DNA from: Nitrospirota bacterium
GTDB lineage: Bacteria > Nitrospirota > Thermodesulfovibrionia > Thermodesulfovibrionales > Dissulfurispiraceae
Reading direction: 5' to 3'
DNA length: 64,000 nt
Assembly (NCBI GenBank): GCA_963710375.1
Contig: CAVPZX010000005.1
Coordinates: 192,001 to 256,000, forward strand
The position numbers and the translations under genes were made by a program. Position 1 is the stretch's first letter. Each line of letters opens with the position of its first letter. Below, one piece after another: positions 10,805-26,091 of this stretch. Under the pieces are notes generated by a model. That model was not told where the DNA came from. It saw only the letters and a program-made list of their open reading frames with translations, and did no database searches.

Positions 10805-11016
10805 TAGTGCATCTTTAAAGCTTTAGGCAGAGGCGGTAAATGTTTAAAATGAAATTAATCATCGGTTGTTATTTAGGGTTAGAGTAAATGAAATTCAGTA
10901 ATCAAGGAGGTGATGAGAAAAGCCGATCCTTGGGAGAGTAAGGAAGCAGGAAGTGCGAACACTTTGCGGTTATCATCATTATTATTTATTATTTATCAAA
11001 AAAAGGAGGATTGAAA

Positions 11017-12591
11017 ATGACTAAGTTTTTAAAGGTTTCTTTTTTAGCAATGTTGATTGTTGCCGTAATGGCATTGCCGGCCTTTGCAGGCACCATTACA
11101 TTTTGGGGTTCACCTGGCGGTACAAGTGGTGCAGCTAATGTCAAATATTCAGTTGCCTTGGAGGCAATGAATGCTGCGAGAAATTTCACTATAACCAGTT
11201 CATCCGGGACAACCGGCTCCGGATACGCTAATGCGCCATTAAAAATCACCCCCGGCCAGCAATTGGCCAGCGGCTCATTGTTGACTATCACATTGGCAAA
11301 TGCCGCGTTTAATGCCGGAGCTACCGGAAGCGTACTTTTGTGCGCTGCTACCAGCGATACCGCGTCAGTAGACGTCCCTGTTGCGGCCCAGCAGCCTGCA
11401 GCAAACAGCGCAAGCTTGTCGTGGGTATTAGGTACTACAGTATCCACCGGCCAATTTCTCTTTGTGACAACGTCTGGGACAACATCTTGCAGTAACAGTA
11501 ATGCAAGCTTGAGTGTTCAGTTCCAGCCTGTCTCATCAGCAGCCTTGGCCTCGGTTTCTTATACTGTTTCCCTGAACTCAACCACGTATGACCAAAAATC
11601 GGCTGTCAATTTCGCTAACTTTGCTAGGGAGTTCACAACAGCTTACGCAAATTTACCTTCTACAATTGATTATACGACGAACAGCGCTTCAAACGGAGCC
11701 CATTTTGTTGTAGGTACAGGAGCTAATGCTGCCAACGCGGGTACGGCGAATATTGCTCGCGGCACGGTAGATTTTAGTGCTGAGGCCGTCGGCGCCACCG
11801 GTGCCAGCCTTTCAGTAGCAGGTATATTGTCCCTTCAGGATTCAGCATCCTGGCAGGGTGTGAAGGATGCTTATGTGCTTGGTAGTGCTGGTGGTGGTAA
11901 TAATTGTGCCGCCGCTGGGCCTGGAGCTAATAACGCGATAGTACAAGGCGCTGCAAATCTTGGCACTGGAACAGTGAACCTGGCTGTATCTTCAGCCGCA
12001 TTTAATGGTGCGGCGTCCTATGCTGCGGTTGCGTGCGTTGATGTGCTGGGCAATACTGTTCTTCAGTCCAGGTCGATCAAGGGATTCTACACTGTCAACG
12101 GTGGAGTCGCTGATGTTGATTCCGCGACACTCCTTATGACCTGGTCACCTAACGGTTATCAGGCAATAATTCCGTATATTAACGGATCCTCGACATTCGA
12201 CACGATATGCACCATCAGTAACCAGGGCGCAACTGCTGCACCTGCGACTGCTACTTTACTTTCAGCAGAGAGCATAGGCGCGGCTGGAGGATCTATTCCA
12301 ACAGGTGCACAGGGTATTAGCCTGGGTACAGTGCCGGCTAATGGACTAATACGTGTAGACTTTACTTCATCAATTACGCCTTACACGTATAGCGGTGGTG
12401 TTGAGACCGCAGGCACGGCAGTTGCGATTCCTGGCGTCCAGGGTAATGACAGGATGTCTGTCATACTGAATGTCGGAGCAGGTGTAACTGCGATTCAGAC
12501 AAATTGCATTCAAACGGATACCCTTGCTGGTGTCAAGAGAAATGTGCCGGTGCTGACGCAAACCAGTGGCACAGTTCCATGGCAGCAGTAA
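11017..12591 (+). CDS. Secreted cell-surface protein, probable S-layer subunit
   Basis: SD AAGGAGGA; Sec signal ending PAFA; A/G/S/T/N/V-rich with few charged residues; own promoter and terminator; adjacent to T2SS. Confidence 0.7.
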   Translation: MTKFLKVSFLAMLIVAVMALPAFAGTITFWGSPGGTSGAANVKYSVALEAMNAARNFTITSSSGTTGSGYANAPLKITPGQQLASGSLLTITLANAAFNAGATGSVLLCAATSDTASVDVPVAAQQPAANSASLSWVLGTTVSTGQFLFVTTSGTTSCSNSNASLSVQFQPVSSAALASVSYTVSLNSTTYDQKSAVNFANFAREFTTAYANLPSTIDYTTNSASNGAHFVVGTGANAANAGTANIARGTVDFSAEAVGATGASLSVAGILSLQDSASWQGVKDAYVLGSAGGGNNCAAAGPGANNAIVQGAANLGTGTVNLAVSSAAFNGAASYAAVACVDVLGNTVLQSRSIKGFYTVNGGVADVDSATLLMTWSPNGYQAIIPYINGSSTFDTICTISNQGATAAPATATLLSAESIGAAGGSIPTGAQGISLGTVPANGLIRVDFTSSITPYTYSGGVETAGTAVAIPGVQGNDRMSVILNVGAGVTAIQTNCIQTDTLAGVKRNVPVLTQTSGTVPWQQ

Positions 12592-13230: not shown

Positions 13231-15141
13231 ATGTCTAAATCAAAAGAAAAATCAAAAGAAAACCACTCGACAGTAATGCGAAAGGAGATGGCCTCAGAGG
13301 GGACCGCAGACAGTATTGTCGTCCATGAATATCCTTCCGTCGTAGAGTGGTTTAAGACCGTTGCAACCAACATAACCAACAACTGGTTCATTATCGGACT
13401 GGCGATATTCGCGGTATTTGTTGCTTTCATGTTTTATTATCCATCGGTGGGTGGCGACGAAGACATTTGGTTTCATATCAGATATGGATATCACTTTGTC
13501 CATAACATGACATGGAAGATAAACCACGCACAGTTCAACTGGATCCCTTTTGAACCTAATTTCAAGTATGTGACCTGGATAGGAAGCTCCATACTTTATA
13601 TATTCTATGCTCTGATGTCGCATTACGGGCTCTATCTGCTCCAATACATAGTCATAGGCTCTATTGTGGGCTGCTTCCTTTATTTCCTTAAAAAAACAGC
13701 ATACCGCTTCGATATTACAAGTCTGCTGGCAATGCTGGCTGTCCTTCTGGTTTTGAACCTCAAATACCTCTATATCAAGCCGGATATGTTCAGCGGATTG
13801 TTGTTTACCGTTGCCTGCATGCTTTACTATAAGGTCAAGGAAACCGGAAACTGGAGACTGTTTTATGTCTATCCGCCGATGTTCCTCCTCTGGGTTAATA
13901 CTCATGGCGGCTTCATAGTGGGACTATTCTTTATAAGCGCCGCACTCGGATGCGAATTCGTTAATTCCTTCATATTCAGGAATGCGAGACTCGACAACAA
14001 AAGCCTTCTGCATTTTGCGTTAAACGTTGTCCTTAGCTATGCCGTTATCGGTATAAACCCTGAAGGCTATGGCTACTTTACAGGCATAATCAGCGATTTT
14101 TTCTCTCCGGGGATGAAAACGACAGAGGCAATCATAGCTGAATATGGCAGCATGTGGGGCACTCTTTTGCTTAAACCTGCAGGTTTCAGGTTTAAATTTG
14201 CAGCATTTTCAATGCTCGCTATGCTTGTAGTGTTTATCGGAATATGCATTTATCTTATCAAGAAGAAGAAATTCTTTGATATGCCGTCCGTCTTTCTTGT
14301 TGTCTTTTTCTATATCTTTGCAATGTCCATTGTTCGCGCATCCCAATATTATCCCCTTATCTGGTTCTTTGCCTTTTTTTACGTTTATAAGCGGTTCGAT
14401 GCCGTAAAGATCAAAGGCGTCTTCAACTTTATATCCCTGTTAATAATATTCATGTTGTGCTTTAGAATAGTCAATTTGGCGCTTGTTGATTATGACTCGA
14501 TTGCATGGTTTGGCACCAACTGGGAGGAAAGCTACCCTGTCAAGGAAGTGCAATACATAAAGAAGGCGAACCCTCCGGGCAATTTGTGGAATGATTACTT
14601 GACGGGAGGCTATCTCTTATGGGCACTGTATCCCAAATACAAGGTCTTCGTCGATCCGCGCTACGGCGGATACATGGCAAACTTTATGCCCACGGCCGAG
14701 GAGTATAAAGATGCTAAAGGACTGGAGGCGTATACAAAGAGGTTCCCCTTCAAGGTGGCCATCGTGGCTTATCATGAAACTCAGATTATCGAATGGCTTC
14801 TGAAAGCGGATTGGAGGATTGCCTTCCTGGACAAGAACGCCCTGGTAATTGTCAATAAGTCGGTGATCCCCGAGCTGTCGAAAGCTGCCCTGGAAGAGGA
14901 CGTCAGCACCAATAGATTTTTGAATGTCGATAACCCCAACATTCTCAGGACATTGTTTAATTTCTATGTAAACCTTGGTCCAAGTTTCGGAAGGGAGATT
15001 ATAGAAATATACCAGAGGAACGTCAGAACAATCTACAGGAACAGGGATTCCGATCTGAACAACATGCGGAATTTTCTTGAACAGAAAGAGGCCGAGATAG
15101 CTGCGCAGAAAGGCAAAGGCAAGACTGGACAAACAAAATGA
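13231..15141 (+). CDS. Polytopic membrane protein, probable GT-C-fold glycosyltransferase
   Basis: More than ten TM segments; acidic DEDIWFH after TM1; WVNTHGGF; periplasmic C-terminal domain with NDYLTGGYLLW and VFVDPR. Confidence 0.6.
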   Translation: MSKSKEKSKENHSTVMRKEMASEGTADSIVVHEYPSVVEWFKTVATNITNNWFIIGLAIFAVFVAFMFYYPSVGGDEDIWFHIRYGYHFVHNMTWKINHAQFNWIPFEPNFKYVTWIGSSILYIFYALMSHYGLYLLQYIVIGSIVGCFLYFLKKTAYRFDITSLLAMLAVLLVLNLKYLYIKPDMFSGLLFTVACMLYYKVKETGNWRLFYVYPPMFLLWVNTHGGFIVGLFFISAALGCEFVNSFIFRNARLDNKSLLHFALNVVLSYAVIGINPEGYGYFTGIISDFFSPGMKTTEAIIAEYGSMWGTLLLKPAGFRFKFAAFSMLAMLVVFIGICIYLIKKKKFFDMPSVFLVVFFYIFAMSIVRASQYYPLIWFFAFFYVYKRFDAVKIKGVFNFISLLIIFMLCFRIVNLALVDYDSIAWFGTNWEESYPVKEVQYIKKANPPGNLWNDYLTGGYLLWALYPKYKVFVDPRYGGYMANFMPTAEEYKDAKGLEAYTKRFPFKVAIVAYHETQIIEWLLKADWRIAFLDKNALVIVNKSVIPELSKAALEEDVSTNRFLNVDNPNILRTLFNFYVNLGPSFGREIIEIYQRNVRTIYRNRDSDLNNMRNFLEQKEAEIAAQKGKGKTGQTK

Positions 15142-15914
15142 AGGTTGTTATTTTAGCAGGGGGGCTTGGCACACGTCTGAGCGAAGAGACTGATATAAAA
15201 CCCAAGCCGATGGTCGAGATAGGCGGAAAGCCTATCCTCTGGCATATCATGAAGATTTATTCTCACTATGGTTTCAATGATTTCATCATCTGCCTCGGCT
15301 ATAAAGGCTATGTCATAAAGGAATACTTCGCCAACTATTTCCTTCATCAGTCCGATGTTACTATAGATTTGAGCGTCAACAAGCTGGAGGTCCATAACTG
15401 TAAGGCAGAGCCCTGGAGGATTACCCTTATAGAGACAGGATTGAACACGAATACAGGAGGCAGGATAAAGAGAATAAAAGATTATGTCGGCGAAGAGACC
15501 TTTATGCTTACCTACGGAGATGGCGTTGCTGATGTAGATATAGGTGGACTCCTGGAGTTTCACAAATCTCACGACAAGGCAGCTACAATCACCTCAGTTC
15601 AGCCTACTGGCAGATACGGTGCATTGGAACTTGATGAAAAGAGTAGAGTGACAAATTTTCAGGAAAAACCGCAAGGCGATGGGGCGTGGGTAAACGGCGG
15701 CTTTTTTGTATTGGAGCCTGAGGTATTTGATTATATATCCGGGGATGAAATCATATGGGAAAGGGAACCGCTCGAATATTTAGCGAGTCACGGTCAGCTC
15801 GATGCATATAAACACCAGGGATTCTGGAAATGTATGGATACCCTTCGCGACAAGACAGAGTTGGAAACCCTCTGGAGTTCCCGAAACGCACCCTGGAAGA
15901 AATGGAACGACTAA
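15138..15914 (+). CDS. rfbF: Glucose-1-phosphate cytidylyltransferase
   Basis: ILAGGLGTRLSEET..KPKPMVEIGGKPILWHIMK; TYGDG; CMDTLRDK; APWKKW. Confidence 0.97.
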   Translation: MKVVILAGGLGTRLSEETDIKPKPMVEIGGKPILWHIMKIYSHYGFNDFIICLGYKGYVIKEYFANYFLHQSDVTIDLSVNKLEVHNCKAEPWRITLIETGLNTNTGGRIKRIKDYVGEETFMLTYGDGVADVDIGGLLEFHKSHDKAATITSVQPTGRYGALELDEKSRVTNFQEKPQGDGAWVNGGFFVLEPEVFDYISGDEIIWEREPLEYLASHGQLDAYKHQGFWKCMDTLRDKTELETLWSSRNAPWKKWND

Positions 15915-15918
15915 ATAT

Positions 15919-16027
15919 GAAGTTGAGAAATTGAGAAGATGTGAAGATGAGAAAAAGAAATGTAAGCCTGATTTGTTGTCGCGCACCTTCTCACCTTCTC
16001 AGCTTCCCATCTTCGGATCGCCGAAGG
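15919..16027 (+). repeat. 8-nt-unit inverted-repeat hairpin immediately upstream of the four-helix-bundle gene
   Basis: gaagttgagaaattgagaagatgtgaagatgagaa (15919-15953) and caccttctcaccttctcagcttcccatcttc (to 16014), then cttcgg-atcg-ccgaag. Confidence 0.85.
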
Positions 16028-16031
16028 TGTG

Positions 16032-16433
16032 ATGGTGGGCAATAGTCAGAAAATAAAAAGTGTTAGGGATTTGGATGTTTATAAGATGGCTTTCAATGCG
16101 GCAATGGACATTTGGCAGATAACAAACGGTTTTCCCAAAGAAGAAAAATATTCTCTTGTAGATCAAATAAGGCGTTCTTCAAGATCTGTATGTTCAAATC
16201 TTGCAGAAGCGTGGCGAAAGAGGCGATATAAAGCCGTGTTCAAGAATAAGTTGACTGATGCTATGCAAGAGGCTTCTGAAACGCAGACATGGCTGGAGTT
16301 CAGTGTTGCTTGTAAATATGTTGATCAAAATAAATTTGATGACTTTGATCAAAAATATGAACATATATTAGCTATGTTGAATAATATGGACTTGAAAGCT
16401 GAATCCTTCTGCTTCTCAACTTCTGATAAATAA
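16032..16433 (+). CDS. Four helix bundle protein (23S rRNA IVS-encoded protein family)
   Basis: DLDVYK.AF...FPKEEKYSLVDQIRRSSRSVCSNLAEAWRKRRY...EASETQTWLEF family signature. Confidence 0.93.
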   Translation: MVGNSQKIKSVRDLDVYKMAFNAAMDIWQITNGFPKEEKYSLVDQIRRSSRSVCSNLAEAWRKRRYKAVFKNKLTDAMQEASETQTWLEFSVACKYVDQNKFDDFDQKYEHILAMLNNMDLKAESFCFSTSDK

Positions 16434-17638
16434 TGTTTAGGGACGTATATAGAGGTAAGCAAGTATTAATCACTGGTCACACGGGATTCAAAGGCTCTTG
16501 GCTTGCCCTGTGGCTCAGAGAGTTAGGAGCGAATATAATCGGTTATTCCCTTGATCCACCTACAAACCCCAATCATTTTGATTTGCTAGCCTCTTCTCAG
16601 GTTCTCACCTTCTCATCTTCTCAACTTCCCAACTTCATCTCTATTTTCGGAGATATACGGGATGTAAAGAAGCTGAATCAGACCTTTCAGAACTATAAGC
16701 CTGATATAGTCTTCCACCTCGCTGCACAACCTCTCGTCAGGTATTCATATAAACATCCGCTCGATACATTTGAGACAAATGTGATAGGGACAATAAATGT
16801 TCTTGAAGCTTGCAGACAGACTGAATCAGTCAGGGCAGTAGTAAATATAACGAGCGACAAGTGCTATGAAAACAAAGAATGGGTATGGGGCTATCGTGAG
16901 AGTGACCCGTTTGGCGGTTACGACCCCTACAGCGCATCAAAAAGTTGCGCAGAGCTTGTGACTAACTGTTACAGGCGCTCTTTCTTTATAACTGAAACTG
17001 AGAAGTTGAGAAGGTGTGAAGGTGAGAGTAAAGCCGAAGGACTCACAACTTCTCAACTTCTCAACTTCACAACTTCAGTCCTTTTAGCCAGCGCAAGAGC
17101 GGGCAATGTCATAGGCGGCGGAGATTGGGCAGCGGACAGATTGATTCCCGACATTATGAGGGCGGTCAGCCGGAATAAGAAGGTTGTTATCAGAAATCCC
17201 AAGTCAACCCGTCCCTGGCAGCATGTGCTGGAGCCGTTGTCAGGTTATCTGGCGCTTGGGCAGAAGCTCTTGGAAGGGAAATCGGAATTTGCCGATGGGT
17301 GGAATTTTGGGCCTGATGATGAAAGCAACATATGTGTTGAAGAAGTTGCAGAAAAGATGACCAGCTTCTGGCATAAAATTGGTTACCAACGCAAACCATT
17401 TAAACATCCAAGCCTCCGGCCATCCGACCCTCATGAGGCTGGTCTGTTAAAACTTGACTGCTCGAAAGCCCATTCAAGGCTTGAGTGGAAACCTGTCTGG
17501 GATATTAAGAAAACGCTTGTAATGACCGCTCAATGGTATAAAGAGTTTTACGAACGTGATGGAATAATGAGTCAGAAGGATTTGGATGAGTATATTCTGA
17601 ATGCGAAGGAAAAAGGTTTGCGTTGGGCAGTTGATTGA
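16433..17638 (+). CDS. rfbG: CDP-glucose 4,6-dehydratase with two repeat-derived in-frame insertions
   Basis: TGHTGFKGSWL, HLAAQPLVR, TSDKCYEN, DPYSASK, RAGNVIGGGDW, RPWQHVLEPL. Confidence 0.96.
   Translation: MFRDVYRGKQVLITGHTGFKGSWLALWLRELGANIIGYSLDPPTNPNHFDLLASSQVLTFSSSQLPNFISIFGDIRDVKKLNQTFQNYKPDIVFHLAAQPLVRYSYKHPLDTFETNVIGTINVLEACRQTESVRAVVNITSDKCYENKEWVWGYRESDPFGGYDPYSASKSCAELVTNCYRRSFFITETEKLRRCEGESKAEGLTTSQLLNFTTSVLLASARAGNVIGGGDWAADRLIPDIMRAVSRNKKVVIRNPKSTRPWQHVLEPLSGYLALGQKLLEGKSEFADGWNFGPDDESNICVEEVAEKMTSFWHKIGYQRKPFKHPSLRPSDPHEAGLLKLDCSKAHSRLEWKPVWDIKKTLVMTAQWYKEFYERDGIMSQKDLDEYILNAKEKGLRWAVD
16593..16636 (+). repeat. Pyrimidine-rich 8-nt tandem array in frame inside rfbG
   Basis: cttctcag gttctcac cttctcat cttctcaa cttcccaa cttc encodes SSQVLTFSSSQLPNF. 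Confidence 0.88.
16991..17079 (+). repeat. In-frame 8-nt-unit hairpin inside rfbG
   Basis: 39-nt arms (16991-17029 and 17041-17079), 32/39 complementary, 11-nt loop. Confidence 0.92.
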
Positions 17639-17662
17639 GCAGGTTTGTCGGAAGACTCCTAC

Positions 17663-19108
17663 ATGGAAAGAAGAGAACAACTAAAACAGGAAATATTTGA
17701 GAGAATAAGGGCATTTTATCAGCTTGTGCATGAGACATCCCACAATGCAGAGTTTGTTGCAGGCAAAAGTCGCATAAACTATGCAGGCCGGGTATTTGAT
17801 GAAGAAGAGATGATTAATCTTGTCGATAGTTCCCTTGATTTCTGGCTTACAACAGGCAAATATGCCGAAAGGTTTGAAAAAGAATTTGCAGATTTCCTTG
17901 GAGTGAAATATTGCTCTCTTGTCAATTCAGGGTCTTCAGCTAATCTCCTCGCGTTTATGGCGTTAACATCTCCGAAGCTCGGTGATAGAAGCATTCAGAG
18001 GGGCAATGAGGTCATAACAGTAGCAGCAGGTTTCCCAACCACAGTCGCTCCCATCATTCAGTATGGCGCTGTGCCGGTATTTGTTGATGTTACGCTGCCG
18101 GCATACAACATAGATTGTTCGCAGCTCGAAAATGCACTATCAGATAAAACAAAGGCTGTAATGGTCGCGCATACCCTCGGCAATCCCTTCGATATCCGGA
18201 CGGTAAAAACGTTCTGCGATAAACATAATCTCTGGCTCATCGAGGATAACTGCGACGCTCTTGGCAGTAAATACCGAAGGTGGGAAGTTGAGAAGGTGAG
18301 AAGTTGTGAACGTGAGAAGGCAGGCCCAACTTCACAACTTCACAACTTCCCACCTTCGGAGCTTTACGGCTACACCGGGACTTTCGGGCATATTGGAACG
18401 TCGAGTTTTTATCCGCCCCATCATATGACTATGGGAGAAGGCGGCGCTGTTTATACGAACGATATTCAGCTCAAAGGGATAATAGATTCTTTCCGTGACT
18501 GGGGCAGGGACTGCTGGTGTGTGTCGGGTAAAGACGATACATGCAAAAAACGCTTTAAATGGCAGCTCGGAGAACTTCCTTACGGATATGATCACAAATA
18601 TATCTATTCCCATTTCGGGTATAACTTAAAGGTTACCGACATGCAGGCGGCTATAGGCTGTGCGCAACTCGAAAAGCTGCCCTTTTTTATTGAAGCAAGA
18701 AAGAAAAACTGGAGTCTTCTGAGGGACGGGCTGCATGACCTTTCAGATAAGTTTATCCTGCCTGAGCCTACTGCGAATTCAGAGCCATCCTGGTTTGGGT
18801 TCCTGTTGACTGTGAAGGAGAGCGCGGGTTTTACGAGGGATGAGATAGTGAATTATCTTGAATCAAATAACATCCAGACACGTATGCTCTTTGCAGGAAA
18901 TATACTGAAGCATCCCTGCTTCGATGAAATGAGAAAAACCGGCCACGGTTTCCGTGTCATTAGGGACTTACCGGTAACTGACCGCATAATGCGCGACAGT
19001 TTTTGGGTTGGGGTCTATCCGGGGATGAAAGAAGAGGCGATCGAATATGTCATGCAAAAGATAAAAGAGTATGCAAGACATGAACAATCGATTCCCGGTT
19101 TAGGGTAA
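17663..19108 (+). CDS. rfbH: CDP-4-keto-6-deoxyglucose 3-dehydrase (E1) with in-frame hairpin insertion
   Basis: NSGSSANL, AAGFPTT, SFYPPHHMTMGEGG (His replacing the Schiff-base Lys), RDWGRDCWC, GYDHKY. Confidence 0.95.
   Translation: MERREQLKQEIFERIRAFYQLVHETSHNAEFVAGKSRINYAGRVFDEEEMINLVDSSLDFWLTTGKYAERFEKEFADFLGVKYCSLVNSGSSANLLAFMALTSPKLGDRSIQRGNEVITVAAGFPTTVAPIIQYGAVPVFVDVTLPAYNIDCSQLENALSDKTKAVMVAHTLGNPFDIRTVKTFCDKHNLWLIEDNCDALGSKYRRWEVEKVRSCEREKAGPTSQLHNFPPSELYGYTGTFGHIGTSSFYPPHHMTMGEGGAVYTNDIQLKGIIDSFRDWGRDCWCVSGKDDTCKKRFKWQLGELPYGYDHKYIYSHFGYNLKVTDMQAAIGCAQLEKLPFFIEARKKNWSLLRDGLHDLSDKFILPEPTANSEPSWFGFLLTVKESAGFTRDEIVNYLESNNIQTRMLFAGNILKHPCFDEMRKTGHGFRVIRDLPVTDRIMRDSFWVGVYPGMKEEAIEYVMQKIKEYARHEQSIPGLG
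18274..18359 (+). repeat. In-frame 8-nt-unit hairpin inside rfbH
   Basis: 33-nt arms (18274-18306 and 18327-18359), 30/33 complementary, outer 17 bp perfect. Confidence 0.93.
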
Positions 19109-21199
19109 TATTTCATTCAGCAATTGCCGGGTTTTTTGGTCATCCGGCTTTATCTTTAACCTTGTCATCAATTGAATGCGCGCATTTTCTATAATATCCG
19201 GTCTCAGGCGCAGGGCAGTTTCGAATTCATTTTTGGCCTTGTCAAGTCTGTCGCTGTCGTAATAAACAAGGCCAAGATTAAAATGTGCTTCTGCGTAATC
19301 GGGCGCAAGTTTAATGGCAATCAGATACTGCTCAATAGATTTGTCAGGCATGTTGATGGCATGATAGGCAATGCCGAGATTATTATGTGCCTCAGCATAA
19401 TCAGGCTTGAGTTTAATGGCAATGATATATTGCTCAATAGCATTGTCAAGCATGTTGCGACTTTTATAAAAATTACCAAGTCTGGCATGTGCATTTGCGT
19501 AACGGGGGAATCTTTTAACTGTATCTTCCCACATTTTTTTGCTGTCTCCATATAGATTGTTCTGCAAATGAGCTGCGACTGACAGAATGCTTATAATAAG
19601 GGCGAGCGTCACTAGTATCACATTGCCGGCTTTCTGTGAACGAATTTTTTCTTTCAGCAGAAATACCCCCGTAACTGTGCAAATGATTACCCCGACCGAG
19701 GGCAGATACATTCGATACGTTTCAATAAGCCTCGGCGTAGGTATAATGCTCGATTCAACTGAAAGGGTGATAAAGAACCACAATATACCGAAACCCATCA
19801 AACGAAAAGCAGGACTAAGGGCAGAGGACTGAGAGGCGAGGACTGAGGACTGAGGACTGAGAGACGAGGACTGAGAGGCGAGGACTGAGGACTGAGGACT
19901 GAGAGACGAGGACTGAGAGGCGAGGACTGAGTTTTCGTCTTCGCGCTTTGCCCTCAGTCCTTTGCCCTTAGTCCTCAGTCCTGGACCCTCTTCCTTTGGC
20001 CCTTTCCACTCAGTCCTCAGTCCTTCGCCCTCAGTCCTCAGTCCTCGCCTCTCTTTTTTCTGCACTAAATAAATCCCCAGTCCAAATAGCGCTGAGAGAA
20101 ACACAAATGAAACGGATACCTGCGGTTGAAAAAAAGACTTAAACACAGGGTACTCATAATTGAGTTCCAGGTTTGCCGGGAAAAACAGCATTCGCAGGTA
20201 AGTGACAATGACCCTGAACTGGGTGAAAAAATACTCTCCCCGCGAGTAGTCCCAGGTGAATCCGGCCATATATGAGCCCGGGTCAATAAGGCTGGGATTA
20301 ATCAGTTGTGTGCCGCGTACTTCGGTCACTGTCGGCATGCTCATAATAGTCAGAGGTATGATGCAAAGTGAAAGCAATAATGGAGCAAGAACGAGCATCC
20401 TCTTCTTAATGCCGCCATTAAAAAAACAAAACTCGTACAACGTTATCACAAAGGGCAGAGTAAACGCATTCTCCTTTGTTTTCATTGCCAGGACCGCTGA
20501 AAGAAGGGATATGGCGTACATAGTCCGGCGCCGGGCTTTATGATGGTCAGGAGCCTCCAATCTGAACTTAATATATGCTGTGAGGGAAAGGAGATAGAAA
20601 AAAGCGGCGAGAGAGGCATAACGTTGCATGACATACGTAACCGCCGCTGTCTGCAGCGGGTGGACGGCAAACAGAGCGGCGGAGAAGAAGGCAATCACTG
20701 CCGGATTGCCTGAACTTGAGAAATTGAGAACTTGTGAAGGTGTGCCCTTTGCCCTATGCCCTATGCCTTTCATGTAAGGTGTTCTGAATGTCAATAGAAC
20801 AAGCAAATAAACCAGGATTGTATTGGCGATATGAATGGCAATATTGACAATATGGTAGCCGGTCACCGATAAACCGTTTATACGGTAGTTGAGCGCAAAG
20901 GTGAGATGCGAGATGTAGCGGGATATGAAAAAACGGTAATTCTCAAACCCTTGAGCTGTTGAGGGGTGAAGGAAATAATTAAGGTCCTTGATAATAGGCT
21001 CGTTAACAATATGCATCTCTTCATCCCACTGAAATGGGACATTCAAGGCATTGGAGTAAATGATCAGAATAAGCAGAGACAGACAAGCGATATGCACAAA
21101 GGAGTTATATGTCAATGACAGCGGACTGAACGATGCATGTGCAGGGGGAAGGTCATTGTGACGGATCAGCTTATTTGTTTTCTTACCCTTGTTTTTCAT
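19100..21199 (-). CDS. TMTC-like membrane glycosyltransferase (GT-C) with C-terminal TPRs, paralog 1
   Basis: YSNAL..PFQWDE, YHIVNIAIH, AVHPLQTAAVTY, KTKEN, YRMYLPS, TPR repeats (YAEAHNNLG). Confidence 0.8.
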   Translation of the reverse strand: MKNKGKKTNKLIRHNDLPPAHASFSPLSLTYNSFVHIACLSLLILIIYSNALNVPFQWDEEMHIVNEPIIKDLNYFLHPSTAQGFENYRFFISRYISHLTFALNYRINGLSVTGYHIVNIAIHIANTILVYLLVLLTFRTPYMKGIGHRAKGTPSQVLNFSSSGNPAVIAFFSAALFAVHPLQTAAVTYVMQRYASLAAFFYLLSLTAYIKFRLEAPDHHKARRRTMYAISLLSAVLAMKTKENAFTLPFVITLYEFCFFNGGIKKRMLVLAPLLLSLCIIPLTIMSMPTVTEVRGTQLINPSLIDPGSYMAGFTWDYSRGEYFFTQFRVIVTYLRMLFFPANLELNYEYPVFKSFFQPQVSVSFVFLSALFGLGIYLVQKKERRGLRTEGEGLRTEWKGPKEEGPGLRTKGKGLRAKREDENSVLASQSSSLSPQSSVLASQSSSLSPQSSVLASQSSALSPAFRLMGFGILWFFITLSVESSIIPTPRLIETYRMYLPSVGVIICTVTGVFLLKEKIRSQKAGNVILVTLALIISILSVAAHLQNNLYGDSKKMWEDTVKRFPRYANAHARLGNFYKSRNMLDNAIEQYIIAIKLKPDYAEAHNNLGIAYHAINMPDKSIEQYLIAIKLAPDYAEAHFNLGLVYYDSDRLDKAKNEFETALRLRPDIIENARIQLMTRLKIKPDDQKTRQLLNEILP
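19811..20050 (-). repeat. In-frame 7-nt (GGACTGA/TCAGTCC) inverted repeat array in paralog 1
   Basis: Encodes RRGLRTEGEGLRTEWKGPKEEG...SVLASQSSSLSPQSS; purine-rich arm followed by its complement. Confidence 0.92.
20712..20770 (-). repeat. Mixed 7-nt (AGGGCAT/A) and 8-nt (TTCTCAA) in-frame insertion in paralog 1
   Basis: Minus strand reads aaggcatagggcatagggcaaagggcacaccttcacaagttctcaatttctcaagttc. Confidence 0.8.
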
Positions 21200-21217
21200 A
21201 AAAGATCCCTGACCGTT

Positions 21218-23867
21218 TCAGCGTGAGATTGCATTCAATAACTGACGGGCTATCTGGTCATCAGGCTTTATCTTTAATCTCGCTATCAACTCTCTGCGCG
21301 CATTTTCCAGTTGTCCCATATTATAGTAGAGGACTCCGAGATTAAAATGAGCTGTTTCATTATCCGGTTGGAGGCGTATGACAGTTTGTAATTCATTCAC
21401 GGCCTTGTCAGGCATGTTGAGGGACTGATAAAGAATAGCGAGATTATTGTGCGCTTCCACATAGTTGGGCTTCTCCTGTATTGCGGCCAGATAGTGTTCA
21501 GTTGCCTTGCCAGACATGCCCTGATCTTTATAGACATTGGCTAGATTATAATGCGCCTCAGGGTAATCAGGCTTCAGATTAATGGCAGTCTGAAACTCTT
21601 TTATAGCCTTGTCAGGCATGTTGAGGGCCTGATAAACAGCTCCCAGATTATTATACGCTTCTATAAAATCGGGTTTTAGATTAATGGCAGTCAGAAACTC
21701 TTTTATAGCCTTGTCAGGCATTTTGAGGGCCTGATCATAGAGGACGCCAAGATTGTAATGCGCCTTCCAGTGCCCAGGGGCAAGACTTATTGCAGTCAGA
21801 TATTCCTTTAAAGCAGCATCGGGCATACCGAGGTCTTGATAGCTGTTGCCGAGACCGAGATGCGCTTCAGTGGAATCAGGATTAATTTTCAAGGCAAGCT
21901 GAAACTGTTCCGCAGCCTTGTCCGACATGCGATGGTGTCGGTAGGCCAACCCAAGATTATAATGCACTCTTTCTTTTGCAGGGAATTTTAACGCGTCTTC
22001 TTTCCATAACTTGACTTCGTCTCTCCACATATCATTGCGCATATATGTAGCAACTGACAGTACGCCTGCAGCAAGTGCAAGAATGGTTACTATCACCCTA
22101 CCGGCTTTTGGGGAACGCAGATTTTCTTTCAGCAGAAATGCACCGGTAACAACGCAAACAAATATCCCCATTGAAGGCAGATACACGCGGTGTTCAAAAA
22201 TCACATCGGCGATGGGTATGATGCTCGACTCCACTGAGAGAGTGATGAAAAACCACAATATCCCGAAACCCATCAACTTAAAGGCAGGACTGAGGGCAGA
22301 GGACTGAGAGGCGAGGACTGAGGACTGAGGACTGAGTGCCAAGGACTGAGAGACGAGGGCAGAGGACTGAGGACTGAGAGACAAGGACTGAGAGGCGAGG
22401 ACTGAGGACTGAGTGTCAAGGACTGAGGACTGAGCAGAGAGGACTGAGTTTTGGTCTTCGATCTTTGCACTCAATCCTCTGCCCTCAGTCCTCAGTCCTG
22501 GATCCTCTTTCCTTTGGCCCTTTCCACTCAGTCCTCAGTCCTCTGTCCTCAGTCCTTGTTTTTTTCTCGCTCCACAGCACTAAATAAATGCCCAGCCCGA
22601 AAAGCGCGGCAAGAAACATAAACGAAAAGATCACCTGGGGGTAAAAGAAAGATCTATAAATAGGATAGTCATAGTCGACATTCTGTCCTGCGGGGAAAAA
22701 CAGCAGCCGCATATATCTCACAATTACTGAGAACTCCGTCATCAGGTATTGCCATGGCGTCGTCCTTGTCTGCACTGTTATCTTGCTCGCATCCGACAAT
22801 ACTTTCCCCAACGGCTGGCTCACATTCAGCAAGCTCAAAGGAATGATGACCACTGTTGCCAGCAGCGGCAAGGCCCATAGAGCCCTCCTGAGCAGATTGC
22901 CTCTGCCGAAGAACACCAGTTCGTACAACACAACAATAAACGGCAGTGTAAAGGCTATCTCCTTTGTCATCATCGCAAGCACAGCCGAAACAATAGAAAT
23001 CCCATAATAAAAATATGGCATGTATTTTCGTTTTTCCCGGCTACCGGCCACCGGCCCCTGGCCACTGTCTTTTGCTTCTTGCCCTCCGCCCTCAGTCCTC
23101 AGTCCTTGGTCCTCTGCCCTCAGTCCTCGCCTCTCAGTCCTCAGTCCTTGGTCCTCTGCCCTCAGTCCTCTGCTCTCAGTCCTCAGTCCTTGGTCCTCCG
23201 CCCTCAGTCCTCGCCTCTCAGTCCTCAGTCCTTGGTCCTCTGCCCTCAGTCCTCGCCTCTCAGTCCTCAGTCCTCTGCCCTCAGTCCTTGTTTTATTACC
23301 CTCAGTCCTTGACTTTATATATGTCACTAATGAAAGGAGATAAAAAAATGAAGCGAGGGACGCAAGCCTCTGCACTATATAAGTGACCGCCTGAGTTTGG
23401 ATAGGATGCACCGCAAACAAGACAGCAGAGAAGAAGGCGATCAGCCCGGAATCGCTGAGTACTAAAGACTGAGGACTTAGGACTGAGGGCATAGGACTGA
23501 GGACTGAGGACTGAGGACTCATGGCCGGTGTTCTGAATGTAAATAGCACAAATAAATAAACCAGCATGGAGTTAGCAATATGAATTGCAAGATTGACTAT
23601 ATGGTAGCCGGTCACATTTGAACCACCCAAGCTGTAGTTCAGGGAAAATGTCAGATACCCGATGAATCGTCTAGAAAAATGTTCATACCCTGTGGAACTG
23701 AACAGAAAATTTCCGATATGACGCACTATACTGTTATCAATTATGTTGAATTCATCGTCAAATACAAACGGCGCATGAAAAGTATTAGAATAACAAATCA
23801 GGCATAATAGAGCTATAATGCCGGCATGTAAGAGCTGGGAATTATGATTTTGATTTGGAAATTTCAT
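21218..23867 (-). CDS. TMTC-like GT-C + TPR protein, paralog 2; split by a +1 frameshift near 22508-22510
   Basis: ORFs 22485-23867 (FVFDD, AVHPIQT) and 21218-22474 (EHRVYLPS, TPRs) join if one T is removed from ctctttcc; both paralogs read ctcttcc here. Confidence 0.8.
22286..22556 (-). repeat. 7-nt inverted repeat array in paralog 2 (site C)
   Basis: ggactga units 22286-22447 followed by tcagtcc units to about 22556. Confidence 0.92.
23090..23309 (-). repeat. 7-nt array with 42-nt higher-order repeat in paralog 2 (site B)
   Basis: GLRTE(R/S)RGLRAEDQ occurs four times in tandem. Confidence 0.93.
23455..23519 (-). repeat. 7-nt array in paralog 2 (site A)
   Basis: Encodes SPQSSVLSPMPSVLSPQSLVLS. 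Confidence 0.88.
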
Positions 23868-26091
23868 TCAGCAACTGTCGGACATTTTGGTCGTTAGGTT
23901 TTATCCTTAATATCGTTGTCAATTCCCTGCGTGCCTTTTCTTTCTGTCCCCTCTCATAATAGAGTTCTCCAAGATTGGAATGCGCCTCTATATAATCGGG
24001 CTTCAGTTTAATGGCAATCAGATAATATTCTATGGCCTTGTCGGGCATTTTCTGGTCTTCATAGATTACGCCAAGATTATTATACGCCTCTGCGCAGTCA
24101 GGCTTTAGTTTAACAGCAATCAGATACTCTTTTAAAGCCCTTCCACGCATGCTGCGGGACTGATAAAACACGCCACCCAGATCAAGATGGGCCTCCACAT
24201 AATCAGGCCTCAGTTCTACGGCAGTCATAAACTCTTTTATAGCTTTCTCGGGCATTTTACGATCTTTATATATATTGCCAAGGTTATAATGTGCCTCAGG
24301 TAAGTCCGGATTAAGCTTGGAAGCAATCATAAACTGCTCAATCGCCTTGTCAGGCATATTACGGTCTCGGTAGATAACCCCGAGGTTATTGTATTCCTCT
24401 GCAGAATCAGGTTTCAGCCCAATGGCAATCCGGTACTGCTCTATGGCTTCATCGAACTTTTTTTGAGACTGATAGAGGCGACCAAGATTATAATGCGCCC
24501 TTTCCTTGGCAGGTGATTTTGCCACGACGTCTTTCCACAGTCTTATACTGTCTCCCCACACTTCGTTCCGCAGATACGTAGCGACCGACAAAACTCCTAT
24601 AGCAAGGGCCAGCATCAAGATTATTACCCTGCCGTACCTGGGCGAACGCACCTTTTCTATTAACAAAAAGGCCCCTGTAACTGTACAAATAATCATTCCT
24701 ATTGAAGGCAGATAAGCACGGTGCTCGTAAATTACATCAGTGATAGGTATTATGCTTGACTCGACCGAAAGAGTGATAAAAAACCACAATATACCAAAAC
24801 CCATCAAACGAAAAGCAGGACTGAGAGGCGAGGACTGAGAGGCGAGGACTGAGGACTGAGCAGTTAGGACTGAGTTTTGGTCTTCGCGCTTTGCACTCAG
24901 TCCTTTGACCTCAGTCCTCAGTCCTGGACCCTCTTCCTTTGGCCCTTTCCACTCAGTCCTCAGTCCTCTGTCCTCAGTCCTTGCTTTATTACCCTCAGTC
25001 CTCAGTCCTTGGTCCTTCGTCTTCAGCACTAAATAAATGCCCAGCCCGAAAAGCGTCACCAGAAACAGAAGCGACAGCATCACCTGGGGATAGAAGAAAG
25101 ATCTATACACCGGATAGTCATAATCGAGGTTCTGCCCTGCAGGGAAAAACAGCAGCCGCACATACGTCACGATCACAGTGAACTCTGTTATCAGATACTG
25201 CCACCGCGTCATGCTTGTTCCCGCCGCAGTCACCTGATTCACATCCGACAACACCTTCCCCAACTGTTGGCCCACATTCAGCATGCTCAGTGGAATGATG
25301 ACCACTGTTGCCAGCAGCGGTAAGGCCCATAGCGTCCTCTTAATCAGATTGCCTCTGCCGAAAAACACCAACTCGTAAATCACAATGATAAACGGCAGCG
25401 TAAAGGCTATCTCCTTTGTCTTCATCGCCAGCACCGCAGAGATAATAGAGATGCTGTAGAAGAAGAGATACCGGAAGTTGCCCTTTGCCCCGCCTGAGGC
25501 GGGCCCTCTGCCCTCTGCTATTAGCCTGAACCGAACATAAAAGTACAACGAGGCAACATAAAACAAAGCTGCCAAAGACGCAAGCCGCTGCACTATGTAT
25601 GTCACTGCCTCGGTTTGGATAGGATGCACCACAAATAACGCGGCAGAAAAAAAGGCAATCAGATTAGAATTTCTGAGGACCGAGGACTGAGGACTGAGAG
25701 GCAAGGACTGAGGACTGAGAGACGAGGACTGAGGGTTCATTAACGGAGTCCTGAATGTAAGCACCACCAATCCATAAACCAGAAGCGCACAGGCCAGATG
25801 TATGGCAAGATTTACTACATGGTAGCCGGTCACATCAAGGCCGCCCAAGCGGTAGTTCAGGGCGAATGTCAGAAACCCTATAAAACGGCGGGGATTATTT
25901 TCATATCCTTTGGAGCTGAAGATAAAATTGCCGATATCATGGACTACCCTGTTATCCCTTATAGAGTATTCGTCGTCAAATATAAACGGCACATGGAAAC
26001 TGTTGGAATAGACGATTATTCCTGCCAAAATTATCAGGAAGGGATAAAAAAAATGATGGGCCGTTGCTGAATTCTTTGCCTTCCGAAACAT
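23842..26091 (-). CDS. TMTC-like GT-C + TPR protein, paralog 3
   Basis: YSNSF..PFIFDD, YHVVNLAIH, VHPIQTEAVTYIVQR, MKTKE, EHRAYLPS, multiple TPRs. Confidence 0.82.
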   Translation of the reverse strand: MFRKAKNSATAHHFFYPFLIILAGIIVYSNSFHVPFIFDDEYSIRDNRVVHDIGNFIFSSKGYENNPRRFIGFLTFALNYRLGGLDVTGYHVVNLAIHLACALLVYGLVVLTFRTPLMNPQSSSLSPQSLPLSPQSSVLRNSNLIAFFSAALFVVHPIQTEAVTYIVQRLASLAALFYVASLYFYVRFRLIAEGRGPASGGAKGNFRYLFFYSISIISAVLAMKTKEIAFTLPFIIVIYELVFFGRGNLIKRTLWALPLLATVVIIPLSMLNVGQQLGKVLSDVNQVTAAGTSMTRWQYLITEFTVIVTYVRLLFFPAGQNLDYDYPVYRSFFYPQVMLSLLFLVTLFGLGIYLVLKTKDQGLRTEGNKARTEDRGLRTEWKGPKEEGPGLRTEVKGLSAKREDQNSVLTAQSSVLASQSSPLSPAFRLMGFGILWFFITLSVESSIIPITDVIYEHRAYLPSIGMIICTVTGAFLLIEKVRSPRYGRVIILMLALAIGVLSVATYLRNEVWGDSIRLWKDVVAKSPAKERAHYNLGRLYQSQKKFDEAIEQYRIAIGLKPDSAEEYNNLGVIYRDRNMPDKAIEQFMIASKLNPDLPEAHYNLGNIYKDRKMPEKAIKEFMTAVELRPDYVEAHLDLGGVFYQSRSMRGRALKEYLIAVKLKPDCAEAYNNLGVIYEDQKMPDKAIEYYLIAIKLKPDYIEAHSNLGELYYERGQKEKARRELTTILRIKPNDQNVRQLLNEISKSKS
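24818..25016 (-). repeat. 7-nt inverted repeat array in paralog 3 (site C)
   Basis: Encodes DQGLRTEGNKARTEDRGLRTEWKGPKEEG...SVLTAQSSVLASQSS. Confidence 0.92.
25673..25734 (-). repeat. 7-nt array in paralog 3 (site A)
   Basis: Encodes PQSSSLSPQSLPLSPQSSVLR. Confidence 0.88.

Follow-up and report, generated by a model that had tools for sequence, protein, structure and literature searches.

Among the closest described relatives of the element reported here are the ORF-bearing intervening sequences of 23S rRNA (e.g. in Coxiella and Leptospira), in which a gene of the S23p/PF05635 family is combined with inverted arms that form a stem, and which have been termed selfish elements (PMC4990558). 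The same protein family occurs at our locus, and a member from Xanthomonas is described as a pentameric ring (PMC4990558). Rickettsia palindromic elements (RPEs) are palindromes of about 150 bp with a conserved peptide, which lie in frame in unrelated metabolic genes in a manner compatible with the protein fold (PMC10969869). Heptamer repeats form arrays of roughly 7-base words at gene ends in Xanthomonas and Nostoc (PMC4692102) and in Beggiatoaceae (PMC4679880); they are rarely found within ORFs or between divergent genes, and 70-75 inverted pairs are described for Xanthomonas (PMC4692102, PMC4679880).

MITEs and REP elements are short, dispersed, palindromic and gene-less, as are the hairpins described below, for which a pairing of autonomous and non-autonomous forms is plausible. 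REPs can sit just after stop codons. A further point of comparison is Avd of diversity-generating retroelements, a pentameric nucleic-acid-binding fold.

We analysed a hairpin inserted in rfbH, located in a 64,000-nucleotide stretch of DNA from a Nitrospirota bacterium (the window; contig CAVPZX010000005.1, positions 192,001 to 256,000). While 23S intervening sequences reside in rRNA, the cassettes considered here lie among protein genes, and the hairpin lies in rfbH itself. Their arms consist of tandem 6-9-base words, each particular to one protein lineage; there are hundreds of copies without the gene, and the rfbH copy is apparently translated rather than excised. The hairpin is like an RPE in being placed in frame in a metabolic gene with a seemingly compatible fold, but members of its family have a median span of 94 nt, periodic arms and no conserved peptide. 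Finally, the heptamer studies each concern a single word, whereas we found 11 words in one genome, six of them with a gene of their own. We consider it probable that the rfbH hairpin, one of 239 in its genome, is a translated, dispensable loop and a gene-less copy of an arm-gene-arm cassette built around a four-helix-bundle gene upstream.

The rfbH hairpin and its surrounding block

The hairpin belongs to a block with the order rfbF, four-helix-bundle gene, rfbG, rfbH, in which the four-helix-bundle gene is two genes upstream of rfbH. The features of the block are as follows.

15138..15914, plus strand: rfbF, glucose-1-phosphate cytidylyltransferase, first gene in the block (TIGR02623, 449.4 bits)
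15918..16019, no strand assigned: 8-mer hairpin located after the rfbF stop and before the start of the four-helix-bundle gene, same type as the rfbH hairpin
16029..16433, plus strand: four-helix-bundle gene (TIGR02436 / PF05635, 23S rRNA intervening-sequence protein family; profile match), with the 8-mer type of the rfbH hairpin on its flanks
16412..16424, plus strand: C-rich right-arm remnant, short and sub-threshold as an array, in the 3' end of the four-helix-bundle ORF
16433..17638, plus strand: rfbG, CDP-glucose 4,6-dehydratase, with two repeat insertions (TIGR02622, 489.1 bits)
16593..16636, plus strand: single C-rich arm of the rfbH-hairpin type, in frame in rfbG (88.6% over 44 nt)
16991..17079, plus strand: full 8-mer hairpin of the rfbH-hairpin type, in frame in rfbG
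17645..19108, plus strand: rfbH, CDP-4-keto-6-deoxyglucose 3-dehydrase (E1) homologue, the host gene (NF011936, 744.9 bits, cut-off 423)
18274..18359, plus strand: the hairpin, an element of 8-mer repeats that carries no gene and lies in the reading frame of rfbH (unit type 15, 21 genome members)

Recounted from the letters, the hairpin spans 86 nt, with a left arm (18274-18306) and a right arm (18327-18359) around a 20-nt loop (18307-18326). As the original prediction had stated, 30 of 33 arm positions pair and the outer 17 do so perfectly; the mismatches fall at stem positions 18, 23 and 26, all within inner units. Exact mirroring of a variant unit between the arms, which had also been proposed, therefore holds for the outermost variant unit but not for the inner units. 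Folding is stronger than in shuffled sequence (z = -5.2, equalled by none of 200 shuffles). The window has no Rfam match at the gathering threshold, and a terminator scan that accepts only loops of 3-8 nt did not call the rfbH hairpin. A contig from X3, another sample of the study that includes the possible source X1, is identical over 17298-18436 (0 differences), so the hairpin is no assembly artefact. The hairpin spans 28 stop-free codons in the rfbH frame and lies 16-17 residues ahead of the His equivalent to H220 of Yersinia E1 (aligned to 3bcx/3bb8), which bears out the proposal that repeat DNA was inserted in frame near the cofactor motif.

The best match to the hairpin elsewhere in the genome is the single arm at 16593..16636 in rfbG, and a full-length second copy is absent from the genome. 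We accordingly do not class it as an RPE, which would call for conserved copies: the best second match covers 44 nt, and the peptides differ. In the orthologues of G001-G003 the right arm, of which the four-helix-bundle gene in the window keeps a remnant, is fuller. The flanks of this gene carry the same 8-mer word type, and the rfbH hairpin is part of a genome-wide family tied to the gene, which the original prediction had missed.

Other parts of the window contain related features. Tandem paralogues of a TPR membrane protein occupy 19100-26091, each with long in-frame 7-mer arrays, and their 7-mer word also flanks a four-helix-bundle gene elsewhere (G000:C5:269669). One extra base at about 22508, within a 7-mer hairpin loop, splits one paralogue (21218-23867, minus strand) into two ORFs; the base is absent in two neighbouring TPR paralogues. 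Contigs of X3 and X6 have a 1-base gap at the split site, which may stem from paralogue contigs, and the split itself may be an assembly error, a pseudogene or a phase variant. At 11011-12591, after a secretin-like gene, lies a secreted-looking ORF of 526 aa, rich in Ala, Ser and Thr, with 0 Pfam or NCBIfam matches, which is possibly a surface-layer protein.

The insertion site in related RfbH proteins

The segment at the insertion site most often has 19 aa (87 of 120 homologues); 3 homologues have 15 aa, and 30 have 21-58 aa, with peptides that are mostly repeat-like in sequence. With 44 aa in the window protein, the net gain is 25 aa relative to the commonest loop and 29 aa relative to the shortest, so that the roughly 28 extra residues first proposed describe the codons covered rather than the gain in length. 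Orthologues do not commonly carry a loop of similar length encoded by non-repetitive DNA, the exception being 30-aa loops lacking a periodic repeat in G051 and G039 (L005, L006), two genomes from which the four-helix-bundle family is absent. Within the genus, three genomes have hairpins of other lengths at this spot and a fourth has a short loop. The 15-aa loop of G009 (same genus), where the hairpin is absent, and the presence of the left arm only in L031 and L032 argue that the insert is dispensable.

Protein searches see intact ORFs only, so we also searched DNA with a pattern blind to the downstream frame; the pattern favours inserts beginning Tyr-Arg-Arg, and kin loci among the matches are non-independent. 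This search returned 13 loci, 12 with inserts, of which 11 are distinct. Adding those of the window and G002 brings the distinct inserts to 13, which have 11 different lengths between 90 and 174 nt. All 13 are multiples of 3, and all 13 are free of stops. For ten further independent lengths, the chance of such frame keeping is about 1 in 60,000, a figure overstated by the kinship of the loci. These enzymes thus carry variable peptide loops added by the hairpins, as far as frame keeping over 13 inserts can tell.

Both word and length of the insert differ even between RfbH proteins that are 91% identical, and both arms switch to the same new word between orthologues. Co-variation of the arms, as originally proposed, is therefore well founded at the level of the repeat word, but base-by-base mirroring is weak: a left arm fits its own right arm just slightly better than it fits those of other members, with a rank of 0.61 in the type of the rfbH hairpin and 0.47-0.82 over types, and the detector itself favours own arms. 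The arms share a word firmly, while single-base compensation is weak. On a FastTree phylogeny of RfbH built with the insert columns removed, the insert label must change 12 times, and well-supported (starred) branches force 5 of these changes; this indicates that the site has undergone repeated gain, loss or replacement of inserts.

To model the insert we used an AlphaFold prediction from 145 sequences, which replaced an earlier, too poor 21-sequence model (pLDDT 63). The overall pLDDT is 91.9, and the model superposes on Yersinia E1 (3bcx/3bb8) at 1.2-1.5 A with a TM of 0.97 by target. The two insert blocks within residues 211-230 (P0001 numbering) have mean pLDDT values of 59 and 44 and fall between strands 203-205 and 235-237. 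The insert is thus predicted as a low-confidence loop at the tip of a beta-hairpin with the E1 fold intact; a surface position is deduced from the low confidence and the strand context. Its closeness to the cofactor motif is a closeness in sequence, the predicted spatial position being the beta-hairpin tip. The window protein has His in place of the aminotransferase Lys in the alignment, a substitution whose role in E1 is described in PMC8987622; this substitution, the family score and the predicted fold place the protein in the RfbH/E1 family.

A shortened transcript had also been hinted at, and removal or skipping of the insert at the RNA level (splicing-like excision or ribosome bypass) would yield RfbH of normal length. 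The strong stem with closely apposed ends, the nearby catalytic His in the sequence and the TPR gene of the window, split by a frameshift inside a hairpin loop, would suit such a process. An intron or a ribosome-bypass element would, on the other hand, be free of frame and stop constraint, whereas the 13 inserts keep frame and lack stops despite an 8-nt unit, and we discarded both classes on this ground. Across the genome, 102 hairpin-strand cases with coding sequence on both sides comprise 9 in-frame read-throughs and 1 split gene, the rest having the look of separate genes on visual inspection. Hairpins of the 6-mer type are found inside ORFs in 0 of 69 cases, compared with 17 of 170 for 7- and 8-mers. 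Moreover, one-armed inserts could not form the stem, and the predicted RfbH model accommodates the insert. RNA-level removal is in our estimation highly improbable, and the strict frame keeping, along with the lack of a wobble bias described below, speaks against the shortened transcript. The insert is very probably a translated passenger loop that is read through. The hairpin is not peculiar to rfbH, and splicing is improbable.

Several further observations concern RfbH and its relatives. A second repeat-insert loop near the RfbH C-terminus (window about 18955-18970) is used in many homologues and empty in the window gene; a contig of a relative from run X7 has 9 bases inserted at 18965 in this loop. 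An N-terminal PemK-family (PF02452) domain is fused to many RfbH homologues (e.g. P0004, P0009, P0012 and others, among them those of G001 and G002). The equivalent loop is also lengthened in L019 and L020, DegT-family paralogues in G007 and G006 that are distant aminotransferases. Related 8-mer inserts occur in rfbH of L037, L038 and L042, whose records are titled Elusimicrobia or Ignavibacteria, and two of the three have a four-helix-bundle gene upstream, which suggests that the rfb block moved horizontally.

A genome-wide family of repeat-armed hairpins

The 3.19-Mb genome was searched for hairpins with arms of tandem 6-8-base words, with a block-shuffled sequence as control. We found 239 such periodic-armed hairpins, and 0 in the control. 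In 233 of the 239 the G-rich arm leads, and in 2 it follows. Clustering by word gave 11 types with at least four members, and the 8-mer type of the rfbH hairpin (21 members) includes the hairpin before the four-helix-bundle gene and that in rfbG. With genes called by a hexamer model (3467 ORFs), so that location classes are approximate, 137 hairpins are intergenic, 85 lie across an ORF end and 17 lie inside ORFs. These are short 6-8-base arrays, mostly outside ORFs and near stops, as in the class of gene-end SSRs with units of 5-11 nt.

Most of the hairpins abut stop codons. In co-directional gaps (n=169) the hairpin starts a median of 2 nt past the upstream stop, and 86% start within 30 nt. 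In the 42 gaps roomy enough to discriminate, 24 hairpins lie at most 20 nt from the stop and 4 at most 20 nt from the next start, the expectation being about 8. Gaps between divergent genes are under-represented (26/221 hairpin gaps vs 311/1485 gaps, chi-square p=0.005). Adjacent hairpins share a type in 27 of 100 pairs, compared with 16.7% after shuffling (9 of 2000 shuffles).

The position after stops and the scarcity between divergent genes are also what would be expected of host regulatory RNA, that is, of post-stop mRNA structures that serve RNase III cleavage, protection of the 3' end or pausing and to which cognate four-helix-bundle proteins bind, with the rfbH copy tuning the rfb operon. 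In line with this, the Coxiella intervening sequence that encodes a member of the protein family is cleaved by RNase III at its terminal stem (PMC4990558). Stems selected as RNA should show an excess of G-U pairs over A-C on the sense strand, and this excess is absent (378 vs 371 overall; 70 vs 70 among 186 hairpins). At the rfbH site, moreover, the hairpin is missing from G009, one-armed in L031/L032 and only weakly folding in six other loci (z -0.4 to -2.9), and the variation in word and length between nearly identical proteins also argues against a conserved regulatory role. We regard a regulatory RNA as quite unlikely. The lack of a G-U excess argues instead for an origin of the arms at the DNA level.

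Flanking direct repeats of the 239 hairpins are equal to those of shuffled pairings, giving no sign of target-site duplication, though old duplications may have decayed. The arms of the hairpins resemble the terminal inverted repeats of MITEs, though periodic; with no target-site duplication and no conserved internal sequence, we do not assign the hairpins to MITEs.

Association with four-helix-bundle genes

Six TIGR02436 genes score above the cut-off in the genome, each flanked by a different word type; the remaining five of the 11 types have no cognate gene, which counts against a tight link. The family is present in 45 of 61 related genomes. We compiled 85 genes of the family, excluding matches to fewer than 85 model positions, duplicates and matches near locus ends. 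Arrays flank 74 of the 85 on both sides, compared with 22 of 600 random windows, so that the cassettes share with 23S intervening sequences a PF05635/TIGR02436 ORF within inverted arms; the window cassette retains only the remnant of its right arm, and the rfbH hairpin has no ORF. The upstream array matches its own downstream array in word (cosine 0.58 against 0.02). A tree was made from the 74 genes and left out the four-helix-bundle gene of the window and 10 others, in which an array is missing on one side. Across genomes, proteins that are at least 60% identical tend to have matching words (median cosine 0.46-0.83), those less than 50% identical do not (cosine about 0.03), and none of 64 pairs of paralogues within a genome have a common word. 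The three orthologues of the four-helix-bundle protein of the window (83-89%) all have the 8-mer type of the rfbH hairpin. These comparisons indicate that the word follows the protein lineage and not the host, though the match could also be expected from simple co-inheritance of the gene and its flanks.

Of 10 rfbH loci with an insert (window included), 7 have a four-helix-bundle gene no more than about 3 kb upstream; of 10 loci without a repeat insert, none has one. L031, L033, L035, L040 and L085 were dropped from this count because their upstream DNA was too short; the loop of L085 is plain, and a four-helix-bundle gene lies downstream of it. Counting against the link, no four-helix-bundle gene is present within 3-5 kb ahead of the insert-bearing rfbH of L032, L041 and L042, and L037 and G003 have an rfbH word unlike that of the neighbouring cassette.

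Hairpin load was sampled over 40-100 kb per related genome, and here as in all our cross-genome counts kin genomes are non-independent. Eight genomes without a four-helix-bundle gene yielded 1 hairpin in 700 kb sampled, whereas three genomes with the gene yielded 5-10 hairpins per 100 kb. Two further genomes with the gene count against the association, namely G037, with 5 family genes and 0 hairpins in 100 kb, and G028, in which the 4 hairpin matches are GC-rich repeats of another kind.

These exceptions bear on a protein-independent origin, in which microsatellite slippage and template switching would generate the hairpins and horizontally moved polysaccharide loci would spread them, with four-helix-bundle genes riding along; the rfbH insert would remain a translated passenger. 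The missing G-U bias, the uniqueness of every copy, the five word types without a cognate gene, the likeness in type of neighbouring hairpins and the hairpin-free sample of G037 are all compatible with this account. It leaves unexplained the fixed polarity of the arms, the single word per protein lineage, the near absence of hairpins from the eight gene-less genomes and the stop-side placement in long gaps, and we judge it improbable, if not negligibly so. We favour an involvement of the four-helix-bundle gene, which may act as the spreader of these repeats.

Structural matches of the four-helix-bundle protein include 2rld and 2gsc, each with five chains. This protein bears a weak likeness to the Avd profile NF033474 (E 3e-6, 27 bits, cut-off 80). 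Since this match is below the cut-off and the 98.8% complete genome contains no RVT_1 gene, we did not class the locus as a diversity-generating retroelement. With target-site duplication, an RVT_1 gene and a full-length second copy all absent, the genome points to no mobilising enzyme. In the literature consulted, of which coverage was partial, we found no earlier paper pairing words with a protein family or joining tandem-word hairpins to TIGR02436 proteins. The available text of the heptamer-repeat papers (PMC4692102, PMC4679880) draws no link to four-helix-bundle proteins, and the part of PMC4679880 covered has neither 'four helix' nor 'IVS'.

Proposed mechanism and implications

We infer the following course for the spread of hairpin copies. 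Both arms would be generated together at the DNA level, through copying with fold-back or template switching and subsequent slippage. The cognate four-helix-bundle pentamer would bind its own word in single-stranded nucleic acid and, once bound, would promote the formation or replacement of hairpins where DNA is transcribed, chiefly at the ends of genes. Word binding and hairpin promotion by the pentamer form a step that we find plausible, at just short of an even chance. Copies landing in ORFs would survive only where they are in frame and in tolerant loops, and the rfbH loop would accordingly represent a site that is repeatedly reused.

More broadly, we hypothesize that a form of selfish DNA not yet described is driven by TIGR02436 proteins, in which each pentamer lineage recognises its own 6-9-base word and seeds or rewrites hairpins armed with it behind stop codons and in tolerant loops, without the signature of a transposase, target duplication, or a reverse transcriptase. 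This generalization is speculative, and we would expect it to fail more readily than to hold.

Taken alone, the rfbH insert would be a tolerated, RPE-like loop insertion. The wider question that it addresses is where the many 6-8-base repeats of bacteria come from, together with the role of the protein family of 23S intervening sequences and four-helix bundles. Each protein lineage corresponds to one word, and a single genome with six paralogues and their six words would lend itself to a cross-binding matrix. If the hypothesis is true, it would provide a function for the widespread TIGR02436 family and an origin for the surplus of bacterial heptamer repeats that has long been noted. The rfbH loop, in which the word at one site differs between close orthologues, would then be a natural record of how this happens.
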